Shown here: positions 12,216-56,704 of the stretch, piece after piece
How the letters are laid out: each line of letters opens with the position of its first letter
Position numbering within the stretch: the first letter of the stretch is position 1
From: Squalus acanthias
Taxonomy: Eukaryota
Direction of reading: 5' to 3'
Length of the DNA: 64,000 nucleotides
Assembly: GCA_030390025.1 (NCBI GenBank)
Contig: CM059432.1
Location: 11,160,001-11,224,000 of the forward strand
Made by a program: the position numbers and the translations under genes
The notes under the pieces: model-generated
Databases searched by the model: none
Told to the model about the DNA's origin: nothing
The model's input: the letters and a program-made list of their open reading frames with translations, nothing else

Positions 12216-12968
12216 GTAGTGGGGAAGCTTTTAGAAACGATAATAAGGTACAAAGTTAACAATCACTTGGACAAGTGTGGATTAATTAAAGAAAGCCAGC
12301 ATGAATTTGTTAAAGGCAAATCGTGTTTAACTAACTTGATCGAGTTTTTTGATGAGGTAACAGAGGGTTGATGAGGGCAATGCGGTTGACGTGGTGTATA
12401 TGGATTTCCAAAAGGCGTTTGATATAATGCTACATATTAGGCTTGCCAGCAAAGTTGAAGCCCATGGAATAAAAGGGACAGTGGCAGCATGGATACGAAA
12501 TTGGCTAAGTGACAGGAAACAGAGAGTAGTGGTGAACGGTTGTTTTTCGGACTGGAGGAAGGTATACCGTGGTGTTCCCCAGGGGTCGGTACTCGGACCA
12601 CTGCTTTTCTTGATATATATTAATGACTTGGACTTGGGAGTACAGGATGCAATTTCAAAATTTGCAGATGAGACAAAACTTGGAAGTATAGTGAACAATG
12701 AGGAGGATAGTGATAGATTTCAAGAAGACATAGACAGGCTGGTGAAATGGGCGGACACGTGGCAGATGAAATTTAACGCAGAAAAGTGCGAAGTGATACA
12801 TTTTGATAGGAAGAATGAGGAGAGGCAATATAATCGAAAGAGTACAATCTTAAAGTGGGTGCATGAACAGAGACCTGGGGGTATATGTGCACAAATTGTT
12901 TGAGGTGGCAGGGCAGGTTGAGAAAGCGGTTAAAAAAGCATGCGGGCTACTGGGCTTCATAAATAGAG

Positions 12969-13288
12969 AGGTCGCACAACACCAGGTTATAGTCCAACAG
13001 TTTTATTTGAAATCACAAGCTTTCGGAGTTACAACTCCTTCGTCGGGTGAAGTGAGGAGATACAGAATCGTCAAAGCATATATAGATAGAGAACAATGCA
13101 TGTGTAACTTACAATTGCAGACAACTGAATTCAATCATCCTGACTGTTTATCTGCCGAGGTGTGATAAAGTTAATCAGGTCAGCCAGGAAGGTACCACAT
13201 CAAAGACATAGCAAGATACAACTGAGACAATGAGGTGGAATCGCATGGGGTCTAACGTGTCAAAAGCTGCCGTCTGTATGTAAAACGA
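12969..13288 (-). mobile_element. Penelope-like element solo pseudo-LTR
   Basis: Homologous to the pLTR at 55021-55350; TSD TTCATAAATAGAG at 12956-12968 and 13289-13301. Confidence 0.9.
13013..13050 (-). ncRNA. Minimal type I hammerhead ribozyme motif (variant core CCGACGA)
   Basis: Minus strand: tcac CCGACGA a ggagt tgta actcc GAAA gc TT gtga. Confidence 0.7.
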
Positions 13289-14209
13289 TTCATAAATAGA
13301 GGCATAGAGTACAAAAGCAAGGAAGTTATGTTGAACTTTTATAAAACACTGTCTTGGCCTCAACTGGAGTATTGTATCCAATTTTGGGCACTGCACTTTA
13401 GGAAGGATGTGAAGGCCTTAGAGAGGGTGCAGAAAAGATTTACGAGAATGATTCCAGGGATGAGGGACTTCAGTTACGTGGATAGACTAGCGAAGCTGCT
13501 GTTCTCTTTAGAGCAGAGAAGATTGAGAGGAGATTTGATAGAAGTGTTCAAAATCATGAGGGGTCTAGACAGAGTAGATAGAGAGAAACTGTTCCCATTG
13601 GCGGAAGGTCGATAACCAGAGGACACAGATTTGAGGTGATTGGCAAACAAACCAAAGGCGACATGAAGAAAAACTTTTTTTACGCAACGAGTGGTTATGA
13701 TCTGGAATGCACTGCCTGAAAGGGTGGTGGAGGCTGACTCAATCGTGGCTTTCAAAAGGGAATTGGATAAGTACCTGAAGGAAAAATATTTGCAGGGCTA
13801 TGGGGAAAGGGCGGGGAAGTGGGACGAGCTGAAGTGCTCTTGCAGAGAGCCGGCATGGGCTTGATGGGCCGAATAGCCTCCTACTGTGCTGTAACCATTC
13901 TATGATTCTAAAATGAGAAAAGAACACCTTGTATGGTGCGCTAATCAAATGGGCTTGGACAAGGTGAAACCTCTCGTGATTGGGGAAAAAGCAAGAACCC
14001 CTGTTGCTTTTTAAGATATACAGTAAATATCTTTTGCTGCATTAAAAAAAAGCCTTGATACATGAGCATTTTTTAATTTTTAAGGTGTTCTCTGAAAAAT
14101 TTTGAGGGAATAGATCATTATGTTTATCTTTAGCAAAATACTATAGGATGTCAATATATAATTACGTTAAATTGGTTTCCTATGGGTTAAAGGAATTGAG
14201 AAAGTATCT

Positions 14210-14550
14210 GCATTATATATAGCGCCTTAACACATCCAAGGTGATATGCAACTAAGTAATTACTTTTTGAATTGCAGTCAGGATTATGTATGCAGCAGCT
14301 AAATAGTGAACATTAAAGTCTCACAAATAGCAACTAAAAGACCTGCTAATCTGATTTTGGCAGTGCTGGTTGAGAGGAATGTTGGCCCAGGACACTGGGA
14401 GAACTCCCTGCTCTTCAACTACTTCTGTGGGATCTTTTAGCAGGCATTTAGGGCCTTAATTTTGCATCTTGATTCTAACACAGCACCTCCAACAATACAA
14501 CACCCTCTCAATACTGCAGTGAAGTGTCCGTTTAGATTATATGTTCAAAG
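14210..14550 (-). mobile_element. Old Deu-type SINE
   Basis: Degenerate match to the copies at 38165 and 59049. Confidence 0.6.
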
Positions 14551-14999
14551 CCCCATGGCCACCTCAGGTTGATGAGGCTGCAAAAAAGGCAATAGAATTG
14601 TTGGTTTTATCCCAGAGTGTAAAAAGCAAGATGAGCCTATATAAAATCTTAAGACTTCAGTTAGAGTATTGTGTGCATTATTGGGCTCCACACTCTAGGC
14701 TTTAGAGAGGGTATAATGAAGATTGATGAGAATGATGTCTGGTATGAGGAAATAGAAATACGAAGAACAAGATTAAAAATTGGGTCTTTTTTCGTTACAA
14801 GGCAGATTACAGGACAGTATAATAGAAGTAATCAAAATTATGAAAGGATGGGACAGCATAGAAGCAGACTGTCGAGGGGGGGTCAAGAACAATGGGCTAC
14901 AGATACAAGATTAAATGTAAGAGACTTGGAACAGAGGGCAGGAGAAACTTTGCGAAATTGAGGCTGTGGAATTTATTTTCTGCGTTGGTGTTTAAGGCT

Positions 15000-16380
15000 A
15001 GGTTGGGGGGCTTCACTTGGGGGCAAGGTGTCGTCGTCGCTTCCTGCTAGCCAAGTTTTTGTTAAGGCCATGATGTCACTACAGTCATCCACAACTAGGT
15101 CGTGGGTGGTAATAGCCTTGTTCGCGAGTGAATGGACATTCTAGAGGGAGATGTGGAGAGGAGTGGTGATTGTTGATCTGCTAGCAGAGTCCAAGAGGTC
15201 AACAGTGGAAGGGGTGAGCTTGACTGGAAAGAGGTTGGCACGATGGGTGGAGTCAGTTTGGGGCATTGATGAACTAATGGCCAGGTACGGAAACAGGTGT
15301 GGAGGGTGAGTGAGCCCAGGAGTTGTTTGAGGGGCAGAGTATCAGTGGGCCAACTAGAAGAGGTTTTCCTATGGAAAGTGGAAAGCCAGGTAGGTGTGGA
15401 GAGTTGACCACGAGCCAGTAAAGATTGTTCTAGTGGTCCAGCATAAGTGAGTAAGGACCTTGAGTGATTAGTAGTGCACACCAGCGGAGAGATGAATAGA
15501 GTCAGCGGCAATGGGAAGAAAGTGGTAAAGCAAAGGTCATGCGGCAGCAATGGAGCAGAATTCAGAACAGGATGGGAAACAGCAGGAACAGATCAGAGTT
15601 TGCTCAGCGTAGAGTGAAAATTTCCCGGCAGAGGAGTAGAAAACTGAGAGCGAAGGAGCAGACCATGTATTCGCATCGAGGCAGCCCAGCAGAAAATACA
15701 GTCCCTGTAGAAAGGGATGGCGACGGATGTCTCTGAGGTCCAGAAGCCAGCGGTGAAATGGACTTCGGCCCAGGAGAAAATAGATTTCTGTCTAGGATCC
15801 ACACAGCAGCAAAATAAAGCTGAGAAACCCAACAGTACATTATAAGAACAGGAGTAGGCCATTTAGCCCCTCGAGTCTGTTCCGTCATTCAGTGAGATCA
15901 TGGCTGATCTGTGACCTAACTCCATATACCCACCTTTGCCCCGTATCCCTTAATACTTTGGTTAACAGAAATCTATCAATCTCTGATTTAACAATTGACC
16001 TAGCATCAACTGCCGTTTGCGGAAGAGAGTTCCAAACTTCTACCACCCTTTGCGTGTAGAAGTGTTTCCTAACTTCACTCCTGAAAGACCTGGCTCTAAT
16101 TGTAAGGCTGTGTCCCCTAGTCCTCGATTCCCCAACCAGCGGAAATGCATTAAAGTACAGTCAGAAGCTCAGCAGGTAACAGCAGCTGCTAGGCGATGAG
16201 TTATAGGCTAGAAGAAGTTATCTTAAAACTTGAAGTGACTGAGTAGCAGAGTCTGAGTATAGTTCAGCAGAGTAGCCTAATCCTGATGGTGGAGGAATCC
16301 AGGAATCAGGGAAGTTAAATTTGAACAGAGTCCCAGATGTTGAAAGGAGCACAGTACAAGCCACGTCATTAGAAAGGCCA
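15000..16380 (-). mobile_element. L2 LINE 5' region with the start of the APE domain, split by a CR1 3' fragment
   Basis: Minus-strand PLHISL*NVHSLANKAITTHDLVVDDCSDIMALTKTWL at about 15160-15045; the upstream extent is uncertain. Confidence 0.6.
15841..16146 (-). mobile_element. CR1 3' fragment
   Basis: CR1 tail and FYTQRVVEVWNSLP-type sequence. Confidence 0.85.
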
Positions 16381-16764
16381 CATTTTAAATAGTGTACCAA
16401 GTTCTAGGTATTCTACAATGGAAATTGATCTATTGAAGATTTTTCAAAAGAAAACTAGAATGGTTTTAGAACTAAGGGCTCCCAAGTTTTGAAAAGAGAA
16501 TCAGATTATTTTTTCCCCCCAATTTTACTTTAGTTATGCCACTGGTCTGTGAGTGACTATCCCACTGGTGTCTCATCCAAATGGCCGTCGTTCTTGTGTG
16601 AGCACCAGTGGCAGTAGGCTTTTCAACTCTGGGGCATAACAGCAGAGGCAGACCTTGCACTCATTTGAAGTTTACCTGTATGGACTTTGGAGTAGAAGCC
16701 ACTGGACAGGAGTGGGGTCTTGGTTGATTTTTACCCTCTTGAGCCGATGGACACTGAAGTCAAA

Positions 16765-17168
16765 TTGTTGGTTCCTGGTCTGGCAATGCCTTGATTTTAA
16801 AATATTCATCTTTGTTTTCAAATCCCTCCATGGCTTCACCCCTCCCTATCTCTGTAACCTCCTCCAGCCCTATAACCCTCATTGCTGCGCTCCTCCAATT
16901 CTGGCGTCTTGCGCATCCCCGATTTTAATTGTTCCACCATTGGTGGCCACGCCTTCAGCTGCCTAGGCCCTAAGCTCTGGAATTCCCTCCCTAAGCGCCT
17001 CCACCGCTCCTCCTTTAAGACGCTGCTTCAAATCTACCTCTGACCAAGCTTTTGGTCATCTGACCTAATATCCCCTTATGTGGCTCGGTGTCAAATTTTG
17101 TTAACGCTCCTGTGAAGCGCCTTGGGACCTTTAACTACTTTTAAAGGCGCTTTATAAATGTATGTTAT
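16765..17168 (+). mobile_element. L2 3' fragment
   Basis: LDFKIFIFVFKSLHG plus L2 tail. Confidence 0.8.
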
Positions 17169-17659
17169 TTAAATGCTTAGGATTTTTAATTTTGGAGATT
17201 CAAGTGGTTGCATTGTGGTTGTAAAACCTTTGTTTTTCATTAGTAAAAATAGATTCCTGACTTTATAATCCCTGTCATACCATGAGCTTGTGGGAAAACT
17301 ATTGAGCCTAAAATAATACCAAACTCAATTATTTCTTTTTATATTTTAATAGGATTTTTACTTGAGCCTGTAGCCAAGCCCAGAATTGGCAAAACATAGC
17401 AACAGAGACCATTCAGTTGAAATAATTGGCTAAGGCTATGATGTGAACTTGAGCTCTGAATGGTGTCCAATACTCAACCATGAGAGTTATTTGACTGCCT
17501 CCCATCCAGTATAAATTTAAACCTGACCTGGAAGTGACCTTCTTGCAATGGGAACATTGCACTGATACAACATTTGAGTGTTTTGCATTCACAGACGTAA
17601 GCCATTAGAACGTTGAACTACATAGCCAAAACAGTAGAATACAAATTAGGGGAAATGGA

Positions 17660-18100
17660 TAGCGCATTGGTTGGGCCATGCCTTGAGTACTGTGTCCATT
17701 TCTGGTCAATGAGAGCCAAGGCAGGTATTCAAGCACTCAAAGCAGTGCAGAGAAAGATACACAAGGCTGATCCCTAGTGTCAAAAGATCTGAGTTATGGG
17801 GAAAGACTGGAGAAACTTGGTGTTTTTGGATTGAAAAGGCCATCTATAGAGGTATTCTAGATAGATAATTGAATATAAAAGTTAAATGTTGAATATTTAT
17901 TTGCAAGAATAGGACCAGGGGATACAGGTTCAAATTCGTAAAAGGTAAATTTAGGACTAATATCAGGCAGTTCTTCGCACAAAGATTGATGAATGTTGAG
18001 AAACTTTCAGATAGAGTAGTGGAGGCAAAATCTCTGGAACCATTTAAGAAACAATTAGATGCTGCAATGCAGGACTGAATGGCCTTTCTCATCTGTAATA
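17660..18100 (+). mobile_element. Old degenerate CR1 3' fragment. Similar relics lie at about 3650-3860, 14570-14990, 25550-26010, 40280-41120, 41320-41500 and 58500-59030.
   Basis: Residual RPxLEYCVxFW and FFxQRV..WN motifs. Confidence 0.65.
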
Positions 18101-20261
18101 TTTATTTATGGGTGAACAATGTTACTGAATTGGACAGGTGTGAAATAGCATCAAGTTATATTTCATTTTTTAAAAACCTGATAATGTAATAGGCTTAATA
18201 AAGTACAGCTTTCAAGCATTTAAAAATTATCTCAATCTTGCATCTACTGTCACGATTATTCACAGTGGATGGAAAGGATTTTCTGGTGCATATTGAGGCA
18301 AGGAATGTCAGTGATGGCAAACTTACAATTTTGCACTTATGCACAGTTGGCCCATGTTTACCAGAAACTGAGTTACAACTGCAGAAGCTAACTTCACATG
18401 GGGTTCTTGCTGATAGCACAGCAAGGAGACATTCCAGCCTGGACTGAATTTAAACCATGGTCCAAAGAAAGGGCGGTGCCGCACAGAACTGAGGTTTTTC
18501 TTTTTAGGGAAATATCTCTTCATATTTTAGCACTTCTTTCCTCCCCCAGGCCAAGTAACAGAGGTTGATGAGTGTGTAATCTACTCATCGACTTTTCCCA
18601 GTACTGCTCCGATCTTGCAGCCAAGGGGTGAACAATAGTGGTCCTAGGACGAAGCTTCCTTAATTTTTTTCTTCTTGTGGCCTTTGAGTGGCACCCACAG
18701 TAACGAGGCTGAGGCAAGGAGTTCTGCAGCTGGGAATTGTAGCTGTATTCAACAACTGCCATGTTAACATGATTGCTGCTTCAAACTACTATCTCGGGTA
18801 AATGATGAGACCTAAAGGACTGTAAGAGGACCCTTATTTTGTGCACAGATTAAAAAAATATTTTTTGTTAAGGTTTAAAGTGGATTAAGCTACAAGCAAA
18901 ATGGCATAAATTCAATATTATTGTAGTTTTTCTATGTGTGGGGTAAATAGGCAATGCATGTAGGCATCATCCACTTTTAAGAAATCTTCAGGCTTGTATT
19001 GAGCAATCATACAATTACTGAGTAATGGGAAGAAGAAGCTATTAGTTTCCAGTCTCTGTTGGAAACTATTATGTTACATGCCTTTATTTTCAAACCCCAT
19101 GATCGAGGCGCTCATTGAGAACACATTGGTTCATTATGGGAATTGCATCTAATCTATATACTAACTGTTTGCACAGGCCTGTGAAAATAGATACTATTGT
19201 AATGAAATGTGTGCACAGTGGCTATAGCCTTTCTAAAATTGAGGTTTTATATTTTAATGGTAATTACCAGACTGTTGACTCAGAAAATTGATTGACATGA
19301 CCTTGGAATGTATCCTCTGGAATTATGAGAAGTTTAATTTCTGTCTAGATCAAGGCATATTTTTAATGACTGGCTAGTCTGATAGTGGTAACATATGGTA
19401 GAAACATGCTCTGAGGGGCAAGTTGTCTTTATGACACACTTGTCTAGAGGATGGACAGATGGTGAGTTATTTAGCCTCATAGTTTCATTCTACATGCTGA
19501 CTTGCCAGTACACTATAGGGTGTCTAAGAAGATTAACTGGGATTTTTGTGAATTTACAATAAAATAAACATTGCCCTTGAAACTATAATTCATGGTGCTG
19601 CACAAAAACTGAAAGACCAAGTAATATTAAATATTTATAGCAATTTTTTTTACCAAAAATACTTTCAACTTATTTTCTGTGTGTATCCAATTTCTCAACT
19701 ATTCCACATCGTCTAGCTTTCTTACCTCATGAAAAACTTTATCAAATTATTGACTGGTCAACCTCATCACTGATTGACTGGTACTTACAATCCACCACTG
19801 CAAATGATTTATTATATAATTAGACAGAGTGGGACATATCTCTCAAGGAAGCTGCGGTAATAGCATCATGATTGCTAATTCTCTTGCATGAATTTCATCT
19901 TGCATCAGGTGATTTATATAATATTTGTGGACCAGTGTTTTTTTTTTCAGTGGAGCGGTAAATTTGTTAAGGTGTTTTGCTGTCTGGTAATTTTGGCGGT
20001 TTAATTTCAAACCCTACTATAATCCAATCAAGGGCTTTGGAGGATGAAACTGCAAGAGCAAACCGCAAGCGGTTCATAATTATCTCAACCATTGAGAAAA
20101 CAGCCTTGCAATTGATCCTTGGCATAAGTTTATAATACATGTGTACTATTTCTGTTTTACATGGGGTTTGTTCTCTCTTATGGTCAGACTTTGTGTTGGT
20201 AGTGCATATAGGTGCATCACATGACATTGGTGGACTCACCACCTGATGCAAGATGAAATTC

Positions 20262-21097
20262 TGATGCGGAGATGCCGGTGTTGGACTGGGGTGGACAAAA
20301 ATGAGAAGTCGCACAACACCAGGTTATAGTCCAACAGTTTTATTTGAAATTACGAGCTTTCGGAGCGCTGCTCCTTCGTCGGGTACAGTGAGGGAATACA
20401 AATCGATTACAAAGTATATATAGACAGAGAACAATGCGTCTGCAGAGATACAATCCGTCAGGGAGGCATTACATCAAAGACACAGCAGAGTACAGCTAAG
20501 ACAATGAGGTGGGTCACAGGGGGTCCAACGTGTCAAATGCTGCAGTCTGCAGTTAAGCTTTTAAATCTTTTTAAAAAAAACTGGAAATCACACCTGTGAA
20601 CCAGACAACGATGTCGAGTCACGTTCTGTAGCGTGACATGAAACCGAGATCCCGGTTGAGGCCGTCCTCATGGGTGCGGAACTTGGCTATCAGTTTTTGC
20701 TCGATGATTTTGCGTTGTCGTGTGTCTCGAAGGCCGCCTTGGAGAACGCTAACCCGCAGATCCGAGGCTGAATGTCCTTGACTGCTGAAGTGTTCCTCGA
20801 CTGGGAGGTAACAATCCTGCCTGGCAATTGTTGCGCGGTGTCCGTTCATACGTTGTCTTAGTGTCTGCATGGTCTCGCCGATGTACCATGCCGCGGTGCA
20901 TTCTTTCCTGCAACGTATGAGGTAGACAACGTTGGCCGAGTCACATGAGTATGTACCATGTACCTGGTGGGTAATGTCCTCACGTGTGACGATGGTATCT
21001 GTGTTGATGATCTGGCATGTCTTGCAGAGGTTGCCGTGGCAGGGTTGTGTGGTGTCGTGGTCGCTGTTCTCCTGACAGCTGGGTAATTTGCTGCGAA
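20262..21097 (-). mobile_element. Penelope-like element (Neptune-type) 3' fragment: Cys linker, GIY-YIG endonuclease and pLTR
   Basis: ORF 20619-21122 with PCHGNLCKTC..YSC..VVYLIRC..YIGET..RMNGHR; pLTR related to 55021-55350. Confidence 0.92.
20351..20385 (-). ncRNA. Minimal hammerhead ribozyme motif (variant core CCGACGA)
   Basis: Minus strand: tac CCGACGA a ggagc agc gctcc GAAA gc TC gta. Confidence 0.7.
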
Positions 21098-23434
21098 GTG
21101 GCCTCCTTATTCTTCCTACCAAAATGAACCACCACCTAAATTGCTATATTGAATTTATTTTGCCATTTATCCACCCATTGAGAGTTGGTCTGGATTCCCA
21201 TTCCCAATTGCCATCCATCCACCCCTGCTGGAAATGTCAAGATTTGGTTGTCTGGTAATGACAGAGCCAGATTTTGCTGTAATGCTAATATTTCAAGCCT
21301 AAGCTCTCAAAAATGACCACTTGGGTGATCGAGCTGTTCAGCACTGGTGGAACTGTACCACAGCAAAATGTGCTGGATAGGAGAAAGTTGGTGTTTTAAA
21401 AAAAAATAACACTTTTTTTATACTTGAGGGAAAATTCAGTGGGAGATCTTCCACATTTATATTAAAGTTGATTAAAGTTTTCATGGCTCCTGAGGGGTTA
21501 AAACACACTGCTAAGATAGAAGTCTCAAAGTATGCTTCTGTGAAAGGCTACAATCTTTTGAAGAATCAGCTGATGAAAGGGTTGGTGCTCGGTATTTTGC
21601 TACAAATGCAAAATTACAGAAAACAATGGATTTTGCAGTATTAATGTTTTGTTTGGAACAGCTTTCATTAAGAACAGCAAAAAGGGACTCTAATTCACAA
21701 GTACATTTTGCTAAATATGCAGCTGAAGATTTTTTTTGGCTGTTGGATAAGAAGACAAATTTGATTTTCCCATAATCTGTTGACAAAACATTGGCACCTG
21801 CATAAAGGTTGTAAAAAGGTTGTTTCTGCACTGATGAAAAGTTGGATATTTGTTGTAACTAAAATTGTACTCGTAAGCTATTTCTAGATGTAGGGTAGCA
21901 ATTAGCATGCCATTTGCAATTTATTACTGTCTAAAGACTGTAATCATTTCCTTATTCCCATGGAATGTTATTTGTGGGGCCTATGCCTCTGGAAGTGTAG
22001 CATTAAAATTCTACAAAATAACAGTGAAAGATAATCACAAAGTAAAATTACATTTTCCCCCTTTTTTTTATTTAAATATTTTAGTAACAAAGTAGTTGAA
22101 GTATAAACCTGACAAACCAAAACAGTAAAAGAGAAAAACATCAATAAAATTAATTTTCAAACTGTGAGCCTAGACTCAATTGCAGAGGAATGAATAGAAA
22201 AACATCCAATATTGAAAATACCAACATAAGGTATTGATTTTTTTTTTTACAATCTGAAATTGGCAAAACCAATATTCCCTTTGCAACAAGAGTATAAGAA
22301 ATGAAAGCCCATTGAGCTGGACTATATTTAGTTGCCCCTGGAACCAGAACAGGAAGTCTAAGTGTACCATCTACAGCCTGTCCTTGAATGTCTGAGTTAT
22401 GTGCAGACCCAATTGTTCTATAAATTCCAGACCAGAACAATTTGGGCATTTGACCTCCGAGTCACTAAACTCCACTGATAGAATCATTGATGGTGACTCA
22501 CCCTAGGCGTCAAATCAAGTTGCTGCCAGCTTGTTCCAAAAATAGAACCAGGCAACTTGGGATGCTAGCTCCTGGTGCTACACAACTAGTATACTATGAT
22601 GCACAGTGTGGAACAACTTGTCCATCAACCTGTGCCAGGATTTATTGGGTGTTCATAAGGAAGCCTAACAAACAAGAGAGGAGTGGAGTTTTTTTTAAAA
22701 AAAAGCAGAAACCTGTTTCTGAGAAATAGGTGATAAGTTTGAGGAACATCTTGTTGAATTATTTTTTGTTTCCATTTAGGCCACATTTAAAAAAAATCAT
22801 ACTTGCTAGGATATATTAAAAATAAGGTCTGCTTCATTTTTCTTGACCTTCCCTGTCTAAGTTATGCCTAGGCTTTCTGATTTTTGTGTTAAGCCGATAA
22901 AATGTACCCATCAAAAAAGTCCGTTAATACCTAAAATACACTCAAATTTGTTCATTCCATAATTTTAATTTTTAATAATTTAAGATAGTTTCTGACCACT
23001 CCTCAAAGTCGTGCAAAGAGAAAATTATTGCACAAGTTATTTGCACCAGAATTAATAGCTGCCATTCCTAATTTTAGACTTGGTGAGGTATTAAAGTTTA
23101 AAATGGTGATTTTTGCCATTTTTTGTCAATGAATTGCATTGAAAATATGAACATAAAATGGCCAAACTAAATACCATCAAAACTAAACACACAAAACCGA
23201 AAGCCTAGTTATGGTAACATACAGTTGGACTGAGATTGAAACTGATGCACATGTCCTCTTACAGGTGCTTCAGGCTGTGAATCACGTCATCTATAGGGTG
23301 GTTGACGAGCAGTAGCAACAAGATTAAAGCTTGTGCATCTGTGTAAAGTGAGCTGCCCATACTGAGTGTTCCTTGTCGTCTAAAATATCACTGCGCATGC
23401 ACAGGCATACAGGATGAACTGTGCGGTAGCACTC

Positions 23435-23897: not shown

Positions 23898-24074
23898 AGA
23901 CAGAACTTTAAAAAATAATTGTTCTCTGGATGTCCTAGTCGCCCTGCTTACAACTAGCGCCAGTCCACAAATTATCAGGTGTACATCCAATTTCACAACT
24001 CGCCATGCTGAGATTTGAACGCATCACCTCTGAGTTGTTCATCAAGTACTATAACCACTATACTACTGTATCCC

Positions 24075-26749: not shown

Positions 26750-27800
26750 AAGGGCAAAGTGGCAAGTTGGATCCAAAATTGGCTCAGAGGCAGGAAACAA
26801 AGGGTAATGGTCGAAGAGTGTTTTTTGACTGGAAGGCTGTTTCCAGTGGGGTTCTGCAGGGCTCAATACTGGATCCTTTGCTTTTTGTGGTATATATCAA
26901 TGATTTGGACTTGAATGTAGGAAGTATGATTAAGAAGTTTGCAGATGATACAAAAATTGGCTGTGTGGTTGACAATGAAGAATAAAGCTGCAGACTGCAG
27001 GAAGATATCAATGGACTGGTCAGGTGGGCGGAACAGTGGCAAATGGAATTCAATCTGGAGAAGTGTGAGGTAATGCATTTGGGGAGGGCACTGAGAAGTG
27101 CAGAAGATCAGAGGGACCTTGGAGTGCATGTCCACAGATCCCTGAAGGTAGCAGGACAGGTAGATAAGGTGGTTAAGAAGGCTTACTTGCCTTTATTAGC
27201 CGAGGCATAGAATATAAGAGCAGGGAGGTTATGCTTGAACTGTATAAAACACTAGTTAGGCCGCAGCTAGAATACTGCGTGCAGTTCTAGTCACCACATT
27301 ACAGGAAGGATATGATTGCACTAGAGTGGGTGCAGAGGAGATTTACGAGGATGTTGCCTGGGCTGGGGAATTTTAGCTGTGAGGAAAGATTGGATAGGCT
27401 GGGGTTATTTTCTTTGGAACAGAGGAGGCTGAGGGGAGACCTAATTGAGGTGTTTAAAATTATGAGGGGCCTAGATAGAGTGGATAGGAAGGACCTATTC
27501 CCTTGCCAGAAGGGTCAATAACCAGGGGGCATAGATTTAAAGTAATTGGTCAGAGGTTTAGAGGGGATTTGAGGAGAATTTTTTTCACCCAGAGGGTGGT
27601 GGGGGTCTGGAACTCACTGCCAGAAAGGGTGGTAGAGGCAGAGACCCTCGTCACATTTAAAAAGTACTTGGATATGCACTTGAAGTGCCTTAACCTACGG
27701 GCCAAGTGCTGGAAAGTGGGATTAGGGTGGATAGCTCTTTGTCGGCCGGCATGTACAAGATGGGCCGAATGGCCTCCTTCTGTGCTGTAAATTTCTATGA
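26750..27800 (+). mobile_element. CR1 fragment (RT to tail)
   Basis: KFADDTKIG and RGDLIEVFKIM motifs; CR1 tail. Confidence 0.9.
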
Positions 27801-30592: not shown

Positions 30593-30663
30593 TGCATTGG
30601 CCGGGAAATGAGCCCTGGTCTCCCGCGTGGCAGGCGAGAATTCTACCCCATAACCACCAATGG
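30593..30663 (-). pseudogene. tRNA-Gly(GCC) pseudogene fused to a CR1 3' tail (30544-30592)
   Basis: Minus strand CCATTGGTGGTTATGGGGTAGAATTCTCGCCTGCCACGCGGGAGACCAGGGCTCATTTCCCGGCCAATGCA; anticodon arm intact, T-loop/B-box and D-arm mutated. Confidence 0.85.
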
Positions 30664-30697
30664 CCACTAATTTGTTGAAATATGAGAAGAACTATTC

Positions 30698-32663: not shown

Positions 32664-32671
32664 TTATAGAG

Positions 32672-38822: not shown

Positions 38823-39803
38823 AAATCATAGAATGGTTACAGCACAGAAGGAGGCCATTCGGCCCATCGAGCCCATGCCGGCTCTCTAAGAGCACTTCAG
38901 CTAGTCCCACTCCCCGCCCTTTCCCCGTAGCCCTGCAAATTTTTTTCCTTCAGGTACTTATCCAATTCCTTTTTGAAAGCCACGATTGAATCTGCCTCCA
39001 CCACCCTTTCAGGCAGTGCATTCCAGATCCTAACCACTCGCTGCGTAAAAAAGTTTTTCCTCATGTCGCCTTTGGTTATTTTGCCAATCACCCTAAATCT
39101 GTGTCCTCTGGTTCTCGACCCTTCCGCCAATAGGAACAGTTTCATTCTATCTACTCTGTCTAGACCCCTCATGACTTTGAACATCTCTATCAAATCTCCA
39201 CTCAACCTTCTCTGCTCTAAGAACAACCCTAGCTTCTCTAGTCTATCCACATAACTGAAGTCCCTCATCCTTGGAATCATTCTTGTAAATCTTTTCTGCA
39301 CCCTCTCTAAGGCCTTCACATCCTTCCTAAAGTGCGGTGCCCAGAATTGGACACAATACTGCAGTTGAGGCCGAAGCAGTGTTTTATAAAAGTTCATCAT
39401 AACTTCCTTGCTTTTGTACTTTCTGCCTCTATTTATGAAGCCCACTATCCCGTATGCTTTCTTAACTGCTTTCTCAACCTGCCCTGCCATCTTCAAGGAT
39501 TTGTGCACATATACCCCCAGGTCTCTCTGTCCATGCACCCCCCTTTAGGATTGTACCCTTTAGTTTATATTGCCTCTCCTTGTTCTTCCTACCAAAATGC
39601 ATCACTTCGCACTTTTCTGCATTAAATTTCATCTGCCACGTGTCCACCCATTTCACCAGCCTGTCTGTGTCTTCCTGAAGTCTATCACTATCCTCCTCAC
39701 TGTTCACTATACTTCCAAGTTTTGTGTCATCTGCAAATTTTGAAATTGTGCCCTGTACATCCAAGTCCAAGTCATTAATATATATCAAGAAAAGCAGTGG
39801 TCC
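38823..39803 (-). mobile_element. CR1 fragment (RT to tail) with an empty PLE target site at 39426-39437
   Basis: ORFs 38897-39538 and 39474-39788. Confidence 0.93.
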
Positions 39804-46411: not shown

Positions 46412-47019
46412 GTGGTGTTTAGCGGTACTGAGGATGGGGGAGTGCAACTGGGTTTAGTATCATTGTGCAGGAGGAACTTGAGGTTTCATAGAACTGAGGA
46501 GGGTGGAATGTGTTTTTTTTTGCACTGGTGGATTTTTGGGTATGTCAGCATGGGAAGGAGGAAGGACAAAGTTCTGACAACTTGGGGGAGGGGGTTGTCT
46601 CTAATCTGATGGCACTGATTTCTAATGGGTCTTTCCAAACGGTGAATTGTTTCTGATTCGGTACCTTGAAAAATAGCATTTTTCTTGTTCAAGCAAATAT
46701 CATACCTGCATTAAGATACAGGTTCAACACTCCATTCTGCCTCTCTAGAACAGTAAATACTGTTGTGATGTAGTCATTGTTGTAATGTAGGAAATGTGGC
46801 AGCCAATTTGCGTACAGATAATCTGTTTTTTAGTGATGGTTGAAGGATAAATATTGGGCAGGGCACCGAGGAGAACTACCCTGCTCTTCGAATAGTGCCA
46901 TGGGATATTTTATGTCCACCTGAGAGGGCAGGTGGGGCTTTGGTTCAACATCTCATCCGAAAGACGGCACCTCCGACAGTACTGCACTGAGGTGTCAGCC
47001 TAGATCATGGGTTTGTGTC

Positions 47020-47765
47020 GTTTTATTAATTTATTGATTGGTTGGTGTATCCCTCATTGATTTCTTGGTGTGCCTGCTACTCCATTAATTTGAATTATTG
47101 GTGAGTTCCATTGTTTTTATTGATTCACTGACGCCTGCTGCTCCATTAATGTACTGATTTGTTGTGTAACCACTGCTTCATTAAGTTATTAATTTGCTGT
47201 TGAGTGTTGCGCCATCACTTTATCAATTCTTGATGCCTGCGGCTCCAGCAATGTATTAATCGCTGGTGCCTGCTGCTCCATTAATTTATTTGGTGCTCTG
47301 GCTTTTCTATTAATTAGATTTAGTGTGCCAGCTGCTCCACAAATTTATGAATTTACTGGTGCCTGCTATTCCATTAATCTATTGAATAGTTGGTGTGCCC
47401 ACAGCTCCATTGATTTATTGATGCACTGATGCCCACTGTTGCCCTGCCATTATTGACTCTCATGGGTGCCTGCTGCTCCATTAACTTTTTGATTCACTGT
47501 TGCTTAATTAACTTATTGCTTTGTTGTGCAAGCTGCTTTAAGACTTTATTTGTTCATTTGTGCTATAACTCCATTAATTTATGAATTGGTTGGTGCCTGG
47601 TGATTCATTAATTTGTTGGTTTGGTGTTCCTGCTACTTGATTCAGTTATTGATTCTGTGGTGCTCACTTCTCCATTACTTTATTGATTTGATGGTGCCTA
47701 CTGCTCTATAAATTTATTGATTGAGTAGCTGGTACTCTTTAAATGTATTAATGAACTGGTGCAGT
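47020..47765. repeat. Degenerate minisatellite, unit about 32 nt
   Basis: Recurring ggtgcctgctgctccattaatttattgattcact-like unit. Confidence 0.8.
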
Positions 47766-49775
47766 ATTTGTTTAGTTGTGCTGCAGCGTTTATTATTAAC
47801 ATTTTTTGTCAGTCAATGGTGATGCATGCGGTTTGTGTTGATTTTTGTAGGTTGAATTTTCCTGTTGTGATTGTATAGTGTCATAAAGCAGTGACACATT
47901 TTGTTGTAATTCAGGTTCTCTACTGTTAATTTTTAATCTCTTATGTAGTTATTACAGCAGCAGTTTCTGTTGTCCACTATTATATTCTGTCACATTTTTG
48001 GGGAATAAAGAGAACATTTTTCAATACTGTACAGTCTTGACTTCTCGTGCAACACTGCGGGAAATTGACTAGTGTGTGCGTGTGCTTGTATCTGCGTGTG
48101 TGCAAAACAATCTGCGTGTGTGTAAAACAACTGTGACAACTTTTTTCCATTGTCAATTCCTGTATCTACATTTATAATGGAACGCCAATGTAAATTCGTC
48201 AACATGCAATTTCACAATCTGACACTGGGTGGCTTTTCCCCACAAATTGCTCAAAATGCTTTCTTGAAAATTTTCATCTGAAAACTTTTGATCTGTAAAT
48301 TTTTTTCTCGGTAACTGAAATTCCTAACGTCCAAAATAAGGTTTTGGTAAAGTAAACCACAGGACAGTTCTTTCAGGTCCCCTGCCCACAAACCCTAACT
48401 TCTTGACATGAATTCCCAGCGTCTCCAAGAACATAAGCTGCAATGTCAAAGTCTTAGAATACTCAAATAATCGTTGTTGAGAAAGCACAAAGCATCCCAT
48501 AAGCAGCACCAGTGGTCCTGAAGTCTTTCTCTCAGTGCTCCGAGTCTCACATCGATCTTTGAGAAATAACCTGGATATAAATGAGAAAATAGTGACATCA
48601 GTCAATTTAATTATCATTAACTGAAGTTTGTATTTTCATTTTTAGAAATATCCATTTACTCAAATGATAACTGGATCAAGTATTTTTTTATAGTTTTCCC
48701 TTCCCATTTGTCTATTACATTTCAACACTTTTATCATTCAGCATTCATAATATGACCACAAATTAGTCACTGGGGAGAAATGCTAAGCATTCAATAGCCG
48801 TCAAATGTGAATGCTGGAATTTTAAATAAGCTCTTTTTTTTAATTTTAAATAACCAAATTAGAAGGTGTCTTTCTCTCAGCTTAATATGCTTTCTGATTT
48901 ATGATTTATAATTTGCATACCAACTGAAGCCAGGACAGGTGTGTCATTAGCGGTGTCATATTTTTCTCTCTATCACACACATCCACATACTCTCTCACTC
49001 TCTCCAGCCTCTGTTCTATAAATGTTACTTGAATAAAATGTAAAAATTTGTCCTCTAGATTATCTTCAAATATTTTTGAAAAACACCCAAATAAAAAGCA
49101 ATGAGCCACGAAAAAGGGTGAAAATATACACCTTTATCATTGTAAAACCTGACCTCGTACTGCATTTTTCAGGCAGGTAGGTCTGCACACTAATTGGTAT
49201 TTTGAGCTGCATAAATGTTTGTAAATCATGCACCACAACAAAGTTTGCTAGAAAATCTTAACAGTTTACTTTTGCAGTGTTTAAGGGAGCTGTGATTTAA
49301 GCTGACGAGCCTCACAGAAGACTTGTCTCCAGTTATTCCACAGAACACAGTAAAATCCACAAATTTTAATAAGTCCCTCAAAGACCACAGAAGTATTTCG
49401 CACAGAGTAAATACAGCGTGGTTTCGTTTTGTACATTTGTTTGCAAAGGTTTTTCAGCAGTGCATTTCAAGCTTTTTGAAAATTTGCGCATTTGGTTTAG
49501 CATTGTGATGTGTTTTTTCAGTTCAGTGTGTTGGTAGATTTGATCTGAAGACTGAGTTATTAGGTTTTTTTTTATTTTAAAAGAATAGTTGTTGCTGTGA
49601 TTACTGTTACAGAACTGGGCAGGAGCCTTTGTGAAATTGTCCCGCAGACCATGTCCTGTTACATTTCAAATATTTGCAAAATGTCTTTGTCCGCATTTTT
49701 CTAGGAAGGAATTAGAAGAGACATTATCACCATTAGTTGAGAGGAATTGACTCTCTGATTTTTTTTAAATTTCGT

Positions 49776-50188
49776 TTCATGGGATGTGGGCGTCGCTGGC
49801 AAGGCCAGCATTTATTGCCCATCCCTAATTGCCCTTGAGAAGGTGATGAGCCGCCGCCTTGAACCGCTGCAGTCCGTGTGGTGAAGGGAGTCCCACAGTG
49901 CTGTTAGGTAGGGAGTTCCAGGATTTTGACCCAGCGATGATGAAGGATTGGCGATATACTTCTAAGTCAGGATGGTGTGGTACTTGGAGGTGGTGGTGTT
50001 CCCATGCACCTGCTGCCCTTGTCCTTCTAGGTTGTAGAGGTCATGGGTTTGGAAGGTGCTGCCGAAGAAGCCTTGGCGAGTTGCTGCAGTGCATCTTGTA
50101 GATGGTACACACTGCAGCCACGGTACGCTGGTGGTGGAGGGAGTGAATGTTTAAGGTGGTGGATGGGGTGCCAATCAAGTGGGCTGCT
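49776..50188 (-). mobile_element. LINE family B 3' fragment
   Basis: Matches 6084-6490. Confidence 0.85.
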
Positions 50189-51199
50189 ATGAAGATTTGG
50201 TTGAGTCTGTATTTTTTGTGCAAGTAGAGGATATAAGCAAGATATTTTTAACCACCAAGCCATCTTCAAAATATAGCAATAAAGGAATAAAAAGCATTTT
50301 AGATTGGAAATAAAAATTGAAAATATTGAATATAGTACAGAAAGCCCATCAGCATCTGAAAAGGAAAAATAAATTTTAACGTTGGTAAAACTGTTCCAGA
50401 ATAGAAACCTTCAAGTTGTTTTACTTGCTTTTTTGTATTTCGGGGTGGTGTTTCATGGACTTTTATAAAATCATAGAATGTAACAGCACAGAAACAGGCT
50501 GTGCCAGTGCTTTTTCTCTGTGCCACCTAGTCTCCCATTCACTCTGTGTTTCCAGCATTTTCTGTTTTTATTTCAGATTTCCAGCATACGCAGTATTTTG
50601 CTTCTGCTTCCAGTATTGTCCTTGGTTTTGTATCTAGAGGTATAGAATACCAAAGCAAGGATTAAGTTTTTTTTCTTTATGTACTTGTGCTGCCACCTTT
50701 AATCACCTGTTTATTTGCTTCTCTACTCAATTTGAAATTCATTGAAGGTATACTTCCTTCTTATAACTTCTAAACTACTTTAGCATCAGTTCTCTTTGAA
50801 TAATAATCTTCACTAATAGTTCAATACCTGCTTTTGGTAGTTCCGTAATCCTAATGTCCACTTCTTCTGTGAAACCTGAGGCAAAGTACTTATTTAGTAT
50901 CTGTAATTACCTCACTCTCCACTACAGGATTGCCTCCTTCATCTCTTAGCGGTCCTAACTCTACCTTGATTATCCTTTTACTATTAATTTGGCTATAGAA
51001 AATCTTTTTCTTCCCTGTTATGCTCTGTTAATTTTCTGGCATACTACTTAGACTTTCTAAAATCCCTTTTGTAATTTTTTTCTCTCTTCTTTATATTGAT
51101 CCTGGTTTTCATTTTTATCTGCCCTGTAAGCACTAAATGCTTTATTTAAAGATTCCATGTAAAAACAAGATACTTAATAAAGCAAAATGCTAATTATAT

Positions 51200-51815
51200 C
51201 GAAATAAAAAGGGATGTCCTGCTGCAGTTGTACAGGGCCTTGTTGAGACCACACCTTGAGTACTGTGTGCAGTTTTGGTCGCCTTATCTGAGGAAGGATG
51301 TTCTTGCCATGGAAGGAGTTCAGCGAAGATTCACAAGGCTGATACCTGGGATGGCAGGAATGACATATGAGGAGAGATTGGGTCGATTGGGCTTATACTT
51401 GCTGGAGTATAGAAGAATGAGAGGGGATCTCATCGAAACATATAAAATTCTGACAGGTCTGGACAAACTAGATGCAGGAAGAATGTTCCCGATGGTCGGA
51501 GAGTCCAGAACCAGGGGTCATAATCTAAGGATAACGGGTAAGCCATTTAGGACAGAAATGAGGAAGAATTTCTTCACCCAGAGAGTGGTGAACCTGTGGA
51601 ATTCTCTACCACAGAAGGTAGTTGAGGCCAAGTCATTAAATATATTCAAGAAGGAGTTAGATATATTTCTTAAAGCTAAAGGTATCAAGGGATATGGGGA
51701 GAAGGCAGGTACAGGGTACTGAGTTTGGATGATCAGCCATGATCTCATCGAATGGTGGAGCAGGCTCGAGGGGCCGAATGGCCTACTCCTGCTCCTATCT
51801 TCTATGTTTCTATGA
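51200..51815 (+). mobile_element. CR1 3' fragment
   Basis: ORF 51228-51722 plus tail. Confidence 0.93.
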
Positions 51816-53619
51816 CTGTACCCAGATAAAGTTCTCCATTTGAGAATATTGGCCTTTGTTCTGTTCAGGTGTGGACATCCCATCAGTATAGTTTGTTTTT
51901 GCTCCAGAATTGGTTCCAGCATCCCAGAAATCTGTACCCTTCCTCCTACACTACATCTCTAGCCACACGTTTCCCTCCTGACTCTGTCTGTTCTTGTACT
52001 GGCTAGTGTGTGGCAATAGTAATAATCCCAAGATTACTAAATTTGAGATCAATTTTCTTAATCTATGACCATATTTCTGGAACTTTTTTTTATACAGGAT
52101 TTGAATTGATTTGTTTTCCATAGTGCTGGTTGAGACATGAACCACAACTTCCAGTGAATCCCTCCCCTTCTCCGGGAGTTAGGCACCTGCTCCTTTTTGT
52201 CCCTTCTTCTGGCACCTGGTTAGCAACATACAATTCGGTTATCATGTTTACGGTTAAAATGGCCTGCTACTAATTATTGAATCTTTCACTACCCAGTGTA
52301 TTCCTGCATGTCAGATTGAGAATACAGAGGGGTAGTGAAAAAGAAATAAAGAGTTGCAAACCGAGAGTATGAGAATAGATTGGCAGCTAACATAAAAGGG
52401 AATTCAAAAGTGATCTATATAATAAACGGGTCGTAAGAGATGGGGTGGGGCTGATTAGGGACCGATTAGGGACCAAAAAGGAGACCTACGCATGGAGGCA
52501 GAGGGCATGGCTGAGGTACTAAATGAGTACTTTGCATCTGTCTTCACCAAGGAAGAAGATGCTGCCAAAGTCATAGTGAAAGAGGAGGTAGTGGAGATAC
52601 TGGATGAGATAAAAATTGATGATGAGGAGGTACTAGAAAGGCTGTCTGTACTTAAAGTTGATAAGTCACCAGGACCAGATGGGATGCATCCTAGGATGCT
52701 GAGGGAAGTTAAGGAGGAAATCGCAGTCATACTGGCCATAATCTACCAATCCTCCTTAGATACGGGGGTGGTGCCAGAGGACTGGAGAATTGCAAATGTT
52801 ACACCCTTGTTCAAAAGAGGGTGTAAGGATAAACCCAGTAACTACAGGCCAGTCAGTTTAACCTCGGTAGTGGAGAAGCTTTTAGAAATGATAATTAGGG
52901 ACAAAGTTAACAGTCACTTGGACAAGTGTAGATTAATTAAGGAAAGCCAGCATGGATTTGTTAAAGGCAAATCGTGTTTAACTAACTTGATTGAGTTTTT
53001 TGATAAGGTAACAGAGAGGGTTGATAAGGGCAATGCGGTTGACGTGTATATGGATTTTCAAAAGGCGTTTGATAAAGTACCATATAATAGGCTTGCCAGC
53101 AAAGTTGAAACCCATGGAATAAAAGGGACAGTGGCAGCATGGATAAGAAATTGACTAAGTGAAAGGAGATAGAGTAGTGGTGAACGGTTGTTTTTCAGAC
53201 TGGAGGAAGGTATAAAGTGATGTTCCCTAGGGGTGGGTACTAGGACCAGTGCTTTTCTTGATATATATCAATGACTTGAACTTGGGAGTACGGGGCACAA
53301 TTTCAAAATTTGCAGATGAGACAAAACTTCGAAGTATAGTGAACAGTGAGGAGGATAGTGATGGACTTCAAGAAGACATAGACAGGCTGGTGAAATAGGT
53401 GGACACGTGGCAGATGAAATTTAACGCAGGAAAGTGCGAAATTATACATTTTGGTAGGAAGAATGAGGAGAGGCAATATAAACTGAAGGGTATGATCCTA
53501 AAGGGGGTGCATGAACAGATAGACCTGGGGGCATATGTGTGCAAATCGTTGAAGGTGGCAGGGCAGGTTGAGAAAGCGGTTAAAAAAGCATACGGGATAG
53601 TGGGCTACATAAATAGAGG

Positions 53620-55350
53620 TCATGATGCGGAGATGCCGGTGTTGGACTGGGGTGGACAAAATTGAGAGGTCGCACAACACCAGGTTATAGTCCAACAGTT
53701 TTATTTGAAATCATAAGCTTTCGGAGCTATCGATCGCCCCTTCCTCAGGTGAAGTAAAGAAATACAGACTCGACAAAGCATATATAGATAGAGAACAATG
53801 CATGTGTACCTTACAATTGCAGACAACTAAATTAAATCATCCTGACTATCTGCCGAGGTGTGATAAAGTTAATCAGGTCAGCCAGGAAGGTACCACATCA
53901 AAGACATAGCAAGATATAACTGAGACAATGAGGTGGAGTCGCAGGGGGTCTAACGTGTCAAAAGCTGGAGAAGTGGAGCATCGTGAGGTTGTCCGTGGGG
54001 ACACCTCAGCACTTCACTCTACCGCAAGCCCACGGACAACCTCACGATGCTCCACTTCTCCAGCTTCCACCCTAACCACGTTAAAGAAGCCATCCCCTAT
54101 GGACAAGCCCTGCGAATACACAGGATCTGCTCAGACAAGGAGGAACGCGATGGACACCTACGGACGCTGAAAAACGCCCTCGTAAGAACGGGATATGACG
54201 CTCGACTCATCGATCGACAGTTCCGACGGGCCACAGCGAAAAATCGCATAGACCTCCTCAGAAGGCAAACACGGGACACAACCAACAGGGTACCCTACGT
54301 CGTCCAATACTTCCCCGGAGCGGAGAAACTACGCCATGTTCTTCGCAGCCTTCAACATGTCATCGATGACGACAAACACCTCGCTAAGGCCATCCCCACG
54401 CCTCCACTACTTGCCTTCAAACAGACCGCCTAACCTCAGAAGTACCATCGTTCGCAGCAAATTACCCAGCTTTCAGGATAACAGCGACCACGACACCACA
54501 CAACCCTGCCACGGCAAACTCTGCAAGACATGCCAGATCATCAACACAGATACCACCATCACACGTGAGGACACTACCCACCAGGTACATGGTACATACT
54601 CATGTGACTCGGCCAACGTTGTCTACCTCATACGTTGCAGGAAAGAATGCACCGCGGCATGGTACATCGGCGAGACCATGCAGACACTGAGACAACGTAT
54701 GAACGAGCACCGCGCAACAATCACCAGGCAGGATTGTTCCCTCCCAGTCGGGGAACACTTCAGCAGTCAAGGACATTCAGCCTTGGATCTGCAGGTAAGC
54801 GTTCTCCAAGGCAACCTTAGGAACACACGACAGCGCAAAATCATCGAGCAGAAACTGATAGCCAAGTTCCGCACTCATGAAGACGGTCTCAACCGGGATC
54901 TTGGGTTTATGTCACGATACATGACGTGATCCGGACTCGAGTCGTCGTTGGCTTGTTCACAGATGTGATTCCCAGTAAAAAAGTAAAAATTTTCCCAGTA
55001 AAAAAGTAAAAATTTTACAGCTTATCGTTTTACATACAGACGGCAGCTTTTGACACGTTAGACCCCCTGCGACTCCACCTCATTGTCTCAGTTGTATCTT
55101 GCTATGTCTTTGATGTGGTACCTTCCTGGCTGACCTGATTAACTTTATCACACCTCGGCAGATAGTCAGAATGATTTAATTTAGTTGTCTGCAATTGTAA
55201 GGTACACATGCATTGTTCTCTATCTATATATGCTTTGTCGAGTCTGTATTTCTTTACTTCACCTGAGGAAGGGGCGATCGATAGCTCCGAAAGCTTGTGA
55301 TTTCAAATAAAACTGTTGGACTATAACCTGGTGTTGTGCGACCTCTCAAT
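53620..55350 (+). mobile_element. Penelope-like element (Neptune-type): inverted pLTR, 5'-truncated RT thumb/GIY-YIG ORF, pLTR
   Basis: LYRKPTD, HVKEAIPYGQALRIHRICS, CKTC, VYLIRC..YIGET motifs; 14-bp TSD TACATAAATAGAGG at 53606-53619 and 55351-55364; 307-bp inverted repeats at 53661-53967 and 55044-55350. Confidence 0.95.
55259..55300 (+). ncRNA. Minimal type I hammerhead ribozyme; an inverted copy lies at 53711-53752
   Basis: tcac CTGAGGA a ggggc gatcgata gctcc GAAA gc TT gtga: canonical CUGANGA/GAAA core with a palindromic AAGCTT stem III. Confidence 0.8.
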
Positions 55351-56704
55351 TACATAAATAGAGGCATAGAGTACAAAAACAAGGAAGTTATGATGAACCT
55401 TTATAAAAACACTGGTTCGGCCTCAACTGGAGTATTGTGTCCAATTCTGGGCACCGCACTTAAGGAAGGATGTGAAGGCCTTAGAGAGAGGGTGCAGAAA
55501 AGATTTGCGAGAATGATTCCAGGGATGAGGGACTTCAGTTACACGGATAGACCAGAGAAGCTGGGGCTGTTCTCCTTAGAGCAGAGAAGGTTGAGTGAAG
55601 ATTTGGTAGAGGTATTCAAAATCATGAGGGGCCTAGACAGAGTAGCTAGAGAGGAACTGTTCCCATTGGCGGATGGGTCGGGTACCAGAAGACAGAGATT
55701 TAAGGTGATGGCAAAATAATCAAGGGCGACATGAGGAAAAACTTTTTTACGCAGCGAGTGGTTATGATCTGGAATGCACTGCCTGAAAGGGTGGTGGAGG
55801 CAGACTCAATCGTGGCTTTCAAAATGGAATTGGATAAGTACCTGAAGGAAAAATATTTGCAGGACTACGGGGAATGGGTGGGGGAGTGGGACTAGCTGAC
55901 GTGCTCTTGCAGAGAGCCGGCACGGGCCGAATGTCCTCCTTCTGTACTGTCACCATTCTGTGATTTAACTTCTCCTCTTTCCCCTGCCCCTGCAACCACT
56001 TTTTCCATACTGATGTGGACTTACTCATAGCATCTTTCCCCGAGTAATTGTCTTTGAAACAAGTATTCAGTATTAAAAACTTATTTAGCAAGACAATACT
56101 TTCAGGGCCCATACTCTTTCCTACTCCATTGGATGATCATCCACTTCCAATATTTATCCTCCATCTTGGAATGTATGTTCCAGGCATCCTTCCACCTCCT
56201 GTATGAATGGTGACTCCTTCTGTACAACAACAGCCTAATGAATAATAACCATCATGAATTCAGAAGGGAAAAGATCCTGTCTGATGATTCCCCTCAACTT
56301 TGAGAAAGTGACAGTCCAAGTGGACGTAGTGTACTTAGACTTCCAAAATGCAATTGACGAAGTTCCACATAAAAGGCTCACATACCAGGCTACAGCATGA
56401 CTTGCAGAACATCCAAACTTGGGCTCACAAGTGGCAGAAAACGCTTGTGCCACATAACTACCAGGGAATGATACTCTCCAACAATTTTTTAAAAACCTAA
56501 ACTCCTTTCCCTGACCTTCGACCATTGCTGAGAGCACCAGCATCTTAGATGTCAGTATTGACTTGAAACTTAACTGGGTTAGCCATATCAACACTGACTA
56601 CAAAAGTAGGGACGAGACTGGGTACTCTGTGACTAGTGGCTCATTTTCTGATCCCACAAAGCCTCTCCATCATCTACAAAACTCAAGTCGACAGAATTTT
56701 GAAC

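Follow-up and report, generated by a model that had tools for sequence, protein, structure and literature searches.

What brings two separate insertions of one mobile element to the same nucleotide of another? The question arises in a 64,000-nucleotide stretch of the Squalus acanthias genome (assembly GCA_030390025.1, contig CM059432.1, positions 11,160,001 to 11,224,000; hereafter the window), in which two copies of a CR1-type long interspersed nuclear element (LINE) are interrupted by inserts derived from a Penelope-like element (PLE). An initial annotation explained the coincidence by a PLE that targets the LINE, using it as a safe harbour and disrupting its second open reading frame (ORF2). 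The analysis reported here bears out the coincidence but points to another origin: probably, the site is a genome-wide PLE hot spot arising from a loose palindromic motif, with a dimer nicking both strands, a 12-nt target duplication and priming at both nicks.

Both inserts break a CR1-type ORF2 at its GFINRG or GYINRG codons, as originally described. The hosts have the two features of CR1-type elements, an ORF2 with a reverse transcriptase (RT) domain and a 3' end of ATTCTRTG-type repeats; we take such an end, formed by ATTCTATG repeats in host copy 1, to be that of CR1, and the assignment of both hosts presumes as much. The inserts are structurally distinct and independent: the first is a solo, tail-less pseudo-long terminal repeat (pLTR) on the minus strand, while the second, spanning 53618-55350, comprises a tail, an inverted pLTR, a 3' piece of the PLE open reading frame (ORF) and a forward pLTR. 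Identity between insert 1 and the arms of insert 2 amounts to 94-95%, while the two arms agree with one another at 99%; the hammerhead core and stem II differ between the two inserts. The target duplications share their left boundary, as had been noted; the lengths first given, 13 and 14 nt with right ends 1 nt apart, did not stand. The extra G and GG are common to target and element, so that both duplications measure 12 nt and both cuts fall at the identical base. Junctions of other filled copies (AGA/ATTGAG, AGA/CATGA and AGA/CGTCA, with the slash at the junction) place the nick after AGA. Two other CR1 copies do carry the site empty, at coordinates now revised to those in the table below, but the tally of two filled sites in four had overlooked a third, diverged empty site.

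The recurrence extends to the whole 3.71-Gb genome. The PLE tail has 26,685 exact 14-mer matches and the core end 102,250 13-mer matches, from which the number of insertions was estimated at about 72,600 (ends paired in the first 100 listed). Filled left junctions at the CR1 site amount to 2,045 (682 with a tail end and 1,363 with a core end), against 7,424 empty sites by a 26-letter pattern or 15,660 by an 18-letter pattern. These counts correspond to a fill of 12-22% and to an enrichment of 5,900-11,000-fold over the genome average. Reversed-pattern controls for the filled left junctions gave 0 matches genome-wide. Tail junctions numbered 0 and 0 in a pair of windows, each of 8 positions, close to the site in the same CR1. 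Insertion is precise to the single base: the same 12-nt duplication was found in 46 of 60 filled loci (those with a right junction found), its right copy being shortened in two or three of the 46. The strong site preference proposed at the outset is thus real, and among the four hot spots with counts the CR1 site ranks first in size.

The element is not LINE-specific, and most of its copies do not lie in one target. More than 90% are found outside the CR1 site, which holds 923 of the 26,685 tail ends when both orientations are combined (3.5%, a lower bound because the patterns are strict), 5 of 122 sampled copies, and 9 of 65 copies retaining the ORF start by strict match, with a few more by eye. 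The sample of 122 consists of 92 of the first 100 tail hits (contig 1) and 30 variant-pattern loci; in 25 the locus showed no duplication, tandem context led to the removal of 3, and 8 recurrent sites were collapsed. CR1 sequence flanks 40 of the 122 sampled insertions, compared with 21% CR1 in distant background annotated with the same library. A second hot spot lies at a different CR1 position (89 filled; 3,585 mostly empty by pattern). The third is a 67-bp minisatellite (G000:C1:803534 onward), with 287 tail junctions in one orientation against at least 126,970 unit matches; its identity as a short interspersed nuclear element (SINE) was considered and rejected, the unit being a 67-bp tandem repeat. 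The fourth is a position in a CR1 3' part, TTGAATATACTC (54 filled; 14,453 site matches).

Insertions away from the CR1 site supplied a target model. Duplications had a modal length of 12 nt (32 of 64 scored), and 81 non-redundant other sites defined a motif with C at -7, T-G at -4/-3 and C at -1, followed by an AT-rich 12-mer with T first and A last, and mirrored on the right. The two halves are equally strong (T-4 in 49/81 and A+4 in 52/81; G-3 in 42/81 and C+3 in 44/81), and the symmetry vanishes when the right half is shifted by 1-3 nt. The idea that one good half-site suffices was unsupported, left and right scores not being anticorrelated (rho 0.18, p 0.12). The matrix, trained without the GFINRG site, scores that site at 12.5 bits. 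Of 531,148 background positions, 3 attain this value: an empty copy of the CR1 site and two instances of the second hot spot. Scores of two empty sites that lay 2 nt off register were set aside. It predicts an enrichment at the CR1 site of 4,400-5,400-fold (bootstrap 1,500-9,500), compared with the 5,900-11,000-fold observed; for the second CR1 hot spot, also excluded from training, the prediction is 7,500-fold and the observation about 6,900. The C at -7, which lies outside every search pattern, is present in 58/60 filled but 31/40 empty hosts (p 0.004). A motif learnt solely from other sites therefore explains most of the enrichment that had been ascribed to LINE targeting. The CR1 site is likely to be a hot spot through its near-perfect match to a loose palindromic motif preferred by the cutting enzyme.

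In the mechanism that we propose, the GIY-YIG endonuclease of the element would read the palindrome, a protein dimer would nick both strands 12 nt apart, and each 3' end would prime complementary DNA (cDNA) at the pLTR core end or tail end, the start point being selected by short primer-template pairing. Two cDNAs would then join head to head, or one alone would survive, as in insert 1. The CR1 site would owe its abundance to coding for protein in 10,000-18,000 CR1 copies. In 85 of 94 duplication-flanked inserts a pLTR 3' end is present at both sides (the forward pLTR end on the far side; median 220 nt); since a pLTR 3' end marks the start of the insert at each nick, priming at both would be favoured. 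The match between primer and template at tail junctions averages 1.5 nt, compared with 0.5 after shuffling (80 of the 94 junctions usable). Structure prediction gave a homodimer of residues 1-330 through helix 42-77, with a score of 0.51 against 0.04 for the best of 3 controls; runs share at least 30% of contacts and the predicted local distance difference test (pLDDT) is at least 62. The score mark was reached by 21/30 solved homodimers (7/16 in animals) and 0/23 single chains; the predicted dimer itself may be a product of memorisation by the model. For PAc, the Poseidon element of the green anole, the available text of PMC11167929 describes cutting and extension of both strands, a tail set by two start sites of the RT and a dimer predicted to form by way of an N-terminal helix, much as is proposed here.

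Subfamilies of the element differ in the sharpness of the motif. The youngest pLTR type, with a mean pairwise distance of 0.9% compared with 2.2% and 4.1% in older types, has G at -3 in 23/28 half-sites against 23/74 in the older ones (p 4e-6, unambiguous registers only). At 13 held-out young sites whose register was fixed without the matrix, T-4 and G-3 were each found in 22/26 half-sites. A matrix built on 24 young sites (8.2 bits) predicts about 15,500-fold enrichment for empty CR1 sites, and the enrichment observed for young copies, obtained by arithmetic on hand-counted listings, is about 10,500-19,600-fold. The hand counts behind the corresponding figure for older subfamilies were 40/100 among the core-end junctions listed at the CR1 site and 60/100 among the core-end matches listed genome-wide. 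Of the 26 tail-left hits at the CR1 site that were classified, 24 are young, compared with 42 of 113 in the unbiased sample. Between young (65) and old (14) protein sequences, few residues of the linker and nuclease differ, and positions 756, 769, 819, 855, 858 and 799-802 may cause the difference in specificity.

Several observations sit uneasily with a hot spot explained by motif and dimer. Older subfamilies are enriched 2,900-5,400-fold at the CR1 site, whereas their own matrix predicts 500-1,000. Filled hosts do not have T at -4 significantly more often than empty ones (15/60 versus 5/40, p 0.10). For the fourth hot spot the prediction, made on only 2 test sequences, is 16-30-fold and the observation about 1,000, and the minisatellite is likewise under-predicted (76-fold pooled and 776-fold for young copies, where 630 was observed for the pool and roughly 1,700 for young copies alone). 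The training sets are small (24-81 sites, the bulk of them within the first 15 Mb of a single contig), with registers partly chosen by the matrix, and the microhomology test shares this register uncertainty. The anole PLE, finally, initiates without homology in vitro, according to the available text of PMC11167929.

Could the sharper motif of the youngest subfamily be the start of LINE targeting, selection having turned the endonuclease preference towards a conserved CR1 coding site in LINEs that are dead and therefore harmless? The over-representation of young copies among the hits, the resemblance of the young preferred letters to the CR1 site and the 9/65 ORF-start copies found there would fit such a course. 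About 85-90% of young copies are nevertheless elsewhere, the sharper young motif also drives hits in the minisatellite (a target of the young subfamily in our sample) and at other CR1 positions, and most sites are likely to be harmless anyway in a 3.7-Gb repeat-rich genome. The 9/65 differ from the family average (p 0.0004) but do not significantly exceed the 8.6% estimated for the young subfamily (p 0.10); removal of the five copies that prompted the test leaves 7/60. The sheltering of full-length copies at the site was accordingly rejected, being inseparable from subfamily, and the safe harbour of the initial annotation was not borne out. ORF2 is disrupted in the DNA, as it had stated, but the effect on CR1 activity was likely nil: hosts are about 13% apart and inserts about 3%, a disparity suggesting that most hosts had decayed before insertion. 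On balance we regard incipient targeting as unlikely. The same holds for its stronger form, in which a few changes in the linker and GIY-YIG domain would have sharpened the palindrome towards the conserved CR1 coding site as a homing-endonuclease-like strategy against the LINE, and which we doubt to the same degree; were it true, the site would take about 1/7 of young full-length copies, and as many as one in five of those LINE copies would be filled.

A different account dispenses with nuclease preference and holds that cutting is loose, the CR1 site being favoured since its 3' ends pair with the two start regions of the element. The top-strand end AAATAGA does match the core start at 6 of 7 positions, a level reached by 6 of 188 sampled site strands; GGTCA is read at 28 of 30 tail-left junctions; and hits at the CR1 site are biased in orientation, with 682 tail junctions one way and 241 in reverse. 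The most informative positions (-7, -4, -3, -1 and their mirrors), however, lie outside the duplication and so are unavailable for primer pairing, conservation is equal in the two halves, and 47 of 80 junctions use starts with a match of 1 nt or less. Primer pairing as the main cause is thus very unlikely; at the CR1 site it likely adds a few-fold, not a thousands-fold, effect to the motif preference.

That a single composite CR1-PLE master was copied, or that filled copies spread by segmental duplication or gene conversion, is almost certainly wrong: the nearly uniform tail-left junctions and one filled pair with identical hosts (L110 and L111, 3 kb apart, a local duplicate) would suit it, but the 60 filled loci include both orientations and three pLTR subfamilies, 42 distinct insert lengths occur among the 46 with both junctions, inserts are much younger than hosts, host and insert distances are uncorrelated (Mantel rho 0.12, p 0.11), and a weakly supported tree of 68 flanks (28 of the 96 left out for poor alignment) has filled hosts scattered among empty ones (20 changes versus 22.8 shuffled), a combination that rules out a master copy as the general cause.

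The element behind these insertions is a large family, some members of which appear intact. An exact 44-mer of the ORF start occurs in 329 copies, and 32 of 65 fetched ORF-start loci (L262 is one example) contain an open 892-aa frame. The predicted protein consists of an RT, a CX4CXXC linker (CHGKLCKTC) and, at its C-terminus, a GIY-YIG domain. RVT_1 scores 35.1 bits on it (cut-off 29.6); GIY-YIG was not reported in a profile search of the whole 892-aa protein, while the ORF fragment of the window scored 22.1 bits (E 1.8e-4), slightly below the 22.6 cut-off. By these linker and domain marks the element is classed as a predicted endonuclease-positive PLE with a linker of the Neptune/Nematis type. 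Its nearest database proteins are from sharks (77-92% identity) and turtle (37-46%). The pLTRs occur in tandem and inverted arrangement, and an optional tail of about 43 nt reaches the region of the ORF ATG. The pLTR carries a putative minimal hammerhead motif with core CTGAGGA or CTGACGA, a variable stem II, GAAA and an AGCT palindrome; a minimal hammerhead with palindromic helix III is a mark of PLE pLTRs in the available text of PMC4209133. An Rfam search gave no hammerhead match in the pLTR, and monomer folding of the pLTR end was unremarkable (z 0.54), as expected if the hammerhead acts as a dimer. One pLTR lineage has the core CCGACGA instead of CTGANGA and may not self-cleave; stem II loops are highly variable, with the stem pairs retained. 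Full-length units recur head to tail about every 3,138 bp in arrays at G000:C2:211213576-211223032 and G000:C5:101685038-101688218. Copies L170, L234, L253 and L310 are cut off by another repeat starting GGGGTAAAAATT or GGGGGAAAAATT, and L054 contains three short inverted PLE inserts inside 2.2 kb.

How the shark element relates to described systems can be judged from its target and its enzyme. R2 and Tx1L insert with single-base precision at a repeated target, in the case of Tx1L inside another mobile element; most of their copies are in the target, whereas the shark PLE has 3-14% there and a nuclease of a different class. Neptune/Nematis-type PLEs, as presented in the available text of PMC8557442, have a CX2-5CXXC linker between RT and endonuclease that has been linked to microsatellite bias, and share with the shark element a single ORF with RT and C-terminal GIY-YIG, pLTRs, tandem or inverted structures and high copy number. 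They differ from it in target: the shark PLE prefers a 26-bp palindrome of mixed sequence whose stagger is fixed at 12 nt, a preference that varies with subfamily. Few sampled insertions were in simple repeats (L083 and L308; no formal count was made), and one of the hot spots is the 67-bp minisatellite. PAc, which by clade definition is without the Neptune-type linker, has an AT-rich (ATT) preference and no template homology in the available text of PMC11167929, while the shark PLE has symmetric flanks containing G/C and short primer-template matches. PLE-X of spike mosses occupies a precise position in a multicopy sequence, the 28S ribosomal DNA (rDNA), but is without GIY-YIG and described as targeted, whereas the shark PLE is more than 90% off-site; in the available text of PMC8557442 nuclease-less 28S rDNA families are the only targeted PLEs described. 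The Penelope elements of Adineta vaga resemble the shark inserts in their head-to-head inverted pLTRs, optional 31-bp tail, 8-10-bp duplications and one copy in a non-LTR element, but the available text of PMC3846280 attributes the inversions to self-priming with an antisense template, whereas the shark junctions would favour priming at both nicks. A literature search that left Repbase reports, supplements and subscription papers outside its scope found no palindromic target motif or CR1 hot spot reported for any PLE. The present analysis adds a fill rate for the whole genome, a symmetric 12-nt model that succeeds at some sites and fails at others, the shift between subfamilies and the intact copies.

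Target choice and cutting by PLEs are poorly known, and the sole full-length protein tested in vitro, as given in the available text of PMC11167929, has merely an AT-rich preference. The shark family offers some 70,000 natural events with a fixed stagger and a symmetric motif, subfamilies of differing sharpness separated by few nuclease differences, and intact 892-aa copies, features that open dimerisation, priming at two nicks and specificity to direct tests, for which the CR1 site provides a substrate. When one element nests repeatedly at the same base of another, a loose motif and an abundant target can be the source, and targeting is not required.

Table. Coordinates in the window of the two filled CR1 copies, their inserts, the empty sites and a further PLE copy.
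Feature	Position	Strand	Remarks
Host CR1-type LINE copy 1 (5'-truncated ORF2 and 3' end), split by insert 1	12216..13910	+	RVT_1 71.3 bits at 12361-12900
Left copy of 12-nt target duplication, insert 1	12956..12967	+	TTCATAAATAGA
Insert 1, solo tail-less PLE pLTR	12968..13288	-	321 nt; young GAG-type end
Putative minimal hammerhead motif in insert 1	13013..13051	-	variant core CCGACGA, stem II GGAG/CTCC, palindromic AGCT
Right copy of 12-nt target duplication, insert 1	13289..13300	+	TTCATAAATAGA
Third PLE copy, outside CR1 site	20262..21097	-	older GAA-type end
Further homologous CR1 site, more diverged, empty	27192-27203		
Empty site in CR1 copy	39428..39439	-	top motif position of the copy: 9.4 bits, 43% of the copy's summed weight
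Host CR1-type LINE copy 2, broken ORF2, split by insert 2	52327..55966	+	RVT_1 46.9 bits
Left copy of 12-nt target duplication, insert 2	53606..53617	+	TACATAAATAGA
Insert 2, PLE tail (pLTR extension ending near ORF start codon)	53618..53660	-	tandem copies run on into ATG ACC ACT ATC
Insert 2, inverted pLTR arm	53661..53967	-	99% identical to 55044-55351
Insert 2, 3' part of PLE ORF (predicted RT thumb, CX4CXXC linker, GIY-YIG)	53999..54929	+	one frameshift near 54430
Insert 2, forward pLTR, tail-less end	55044..55350	+	putative hammerhead motif, core CTGAGGA
Right copy of 12-nt target duplication, insert 2	55351..55362	+	TACATAAATAGA
Empty site in more diverged CR1 copy	57332..57343	-	

Around the third PLE copy, which belongs to the family of the two inserts and had been overlooked initially, no target duplication is evident. 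Elsewhere in the genome, a different CR1 family is hit recurrently about 20 nt downstream of the homologous codon, at loci L028, L070, L287, L289 and L320. Locus L315 holds a full-length PLE flanked on the left by the CR1 GFINRG site and on the right by the second hot spot, which belongs to another CR1 family; two joined cut sites, recombination between two insertions and misassembly are alternative explanations. No RNA dataset was among the sequencing runs listed for 4 sampled words. In the 4 of 24 runs analysed, one contig, from a run with a different organism code, spans a CR1-tail junction (depth 4, 76 + 49 letters with 10 differences), and joints of the core end occur in another run; shared insertions cannot be told from independent ones there, and neither observation was used as support. 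In the window, a tandem repeat of about 59-bp units (11452-12213) adjoins the 5' end of host copy 1, and a weak tRNA-like Rfam match (32.3 bits, 30593-30663) within a dispersed repeat is likely the head of a SINE.

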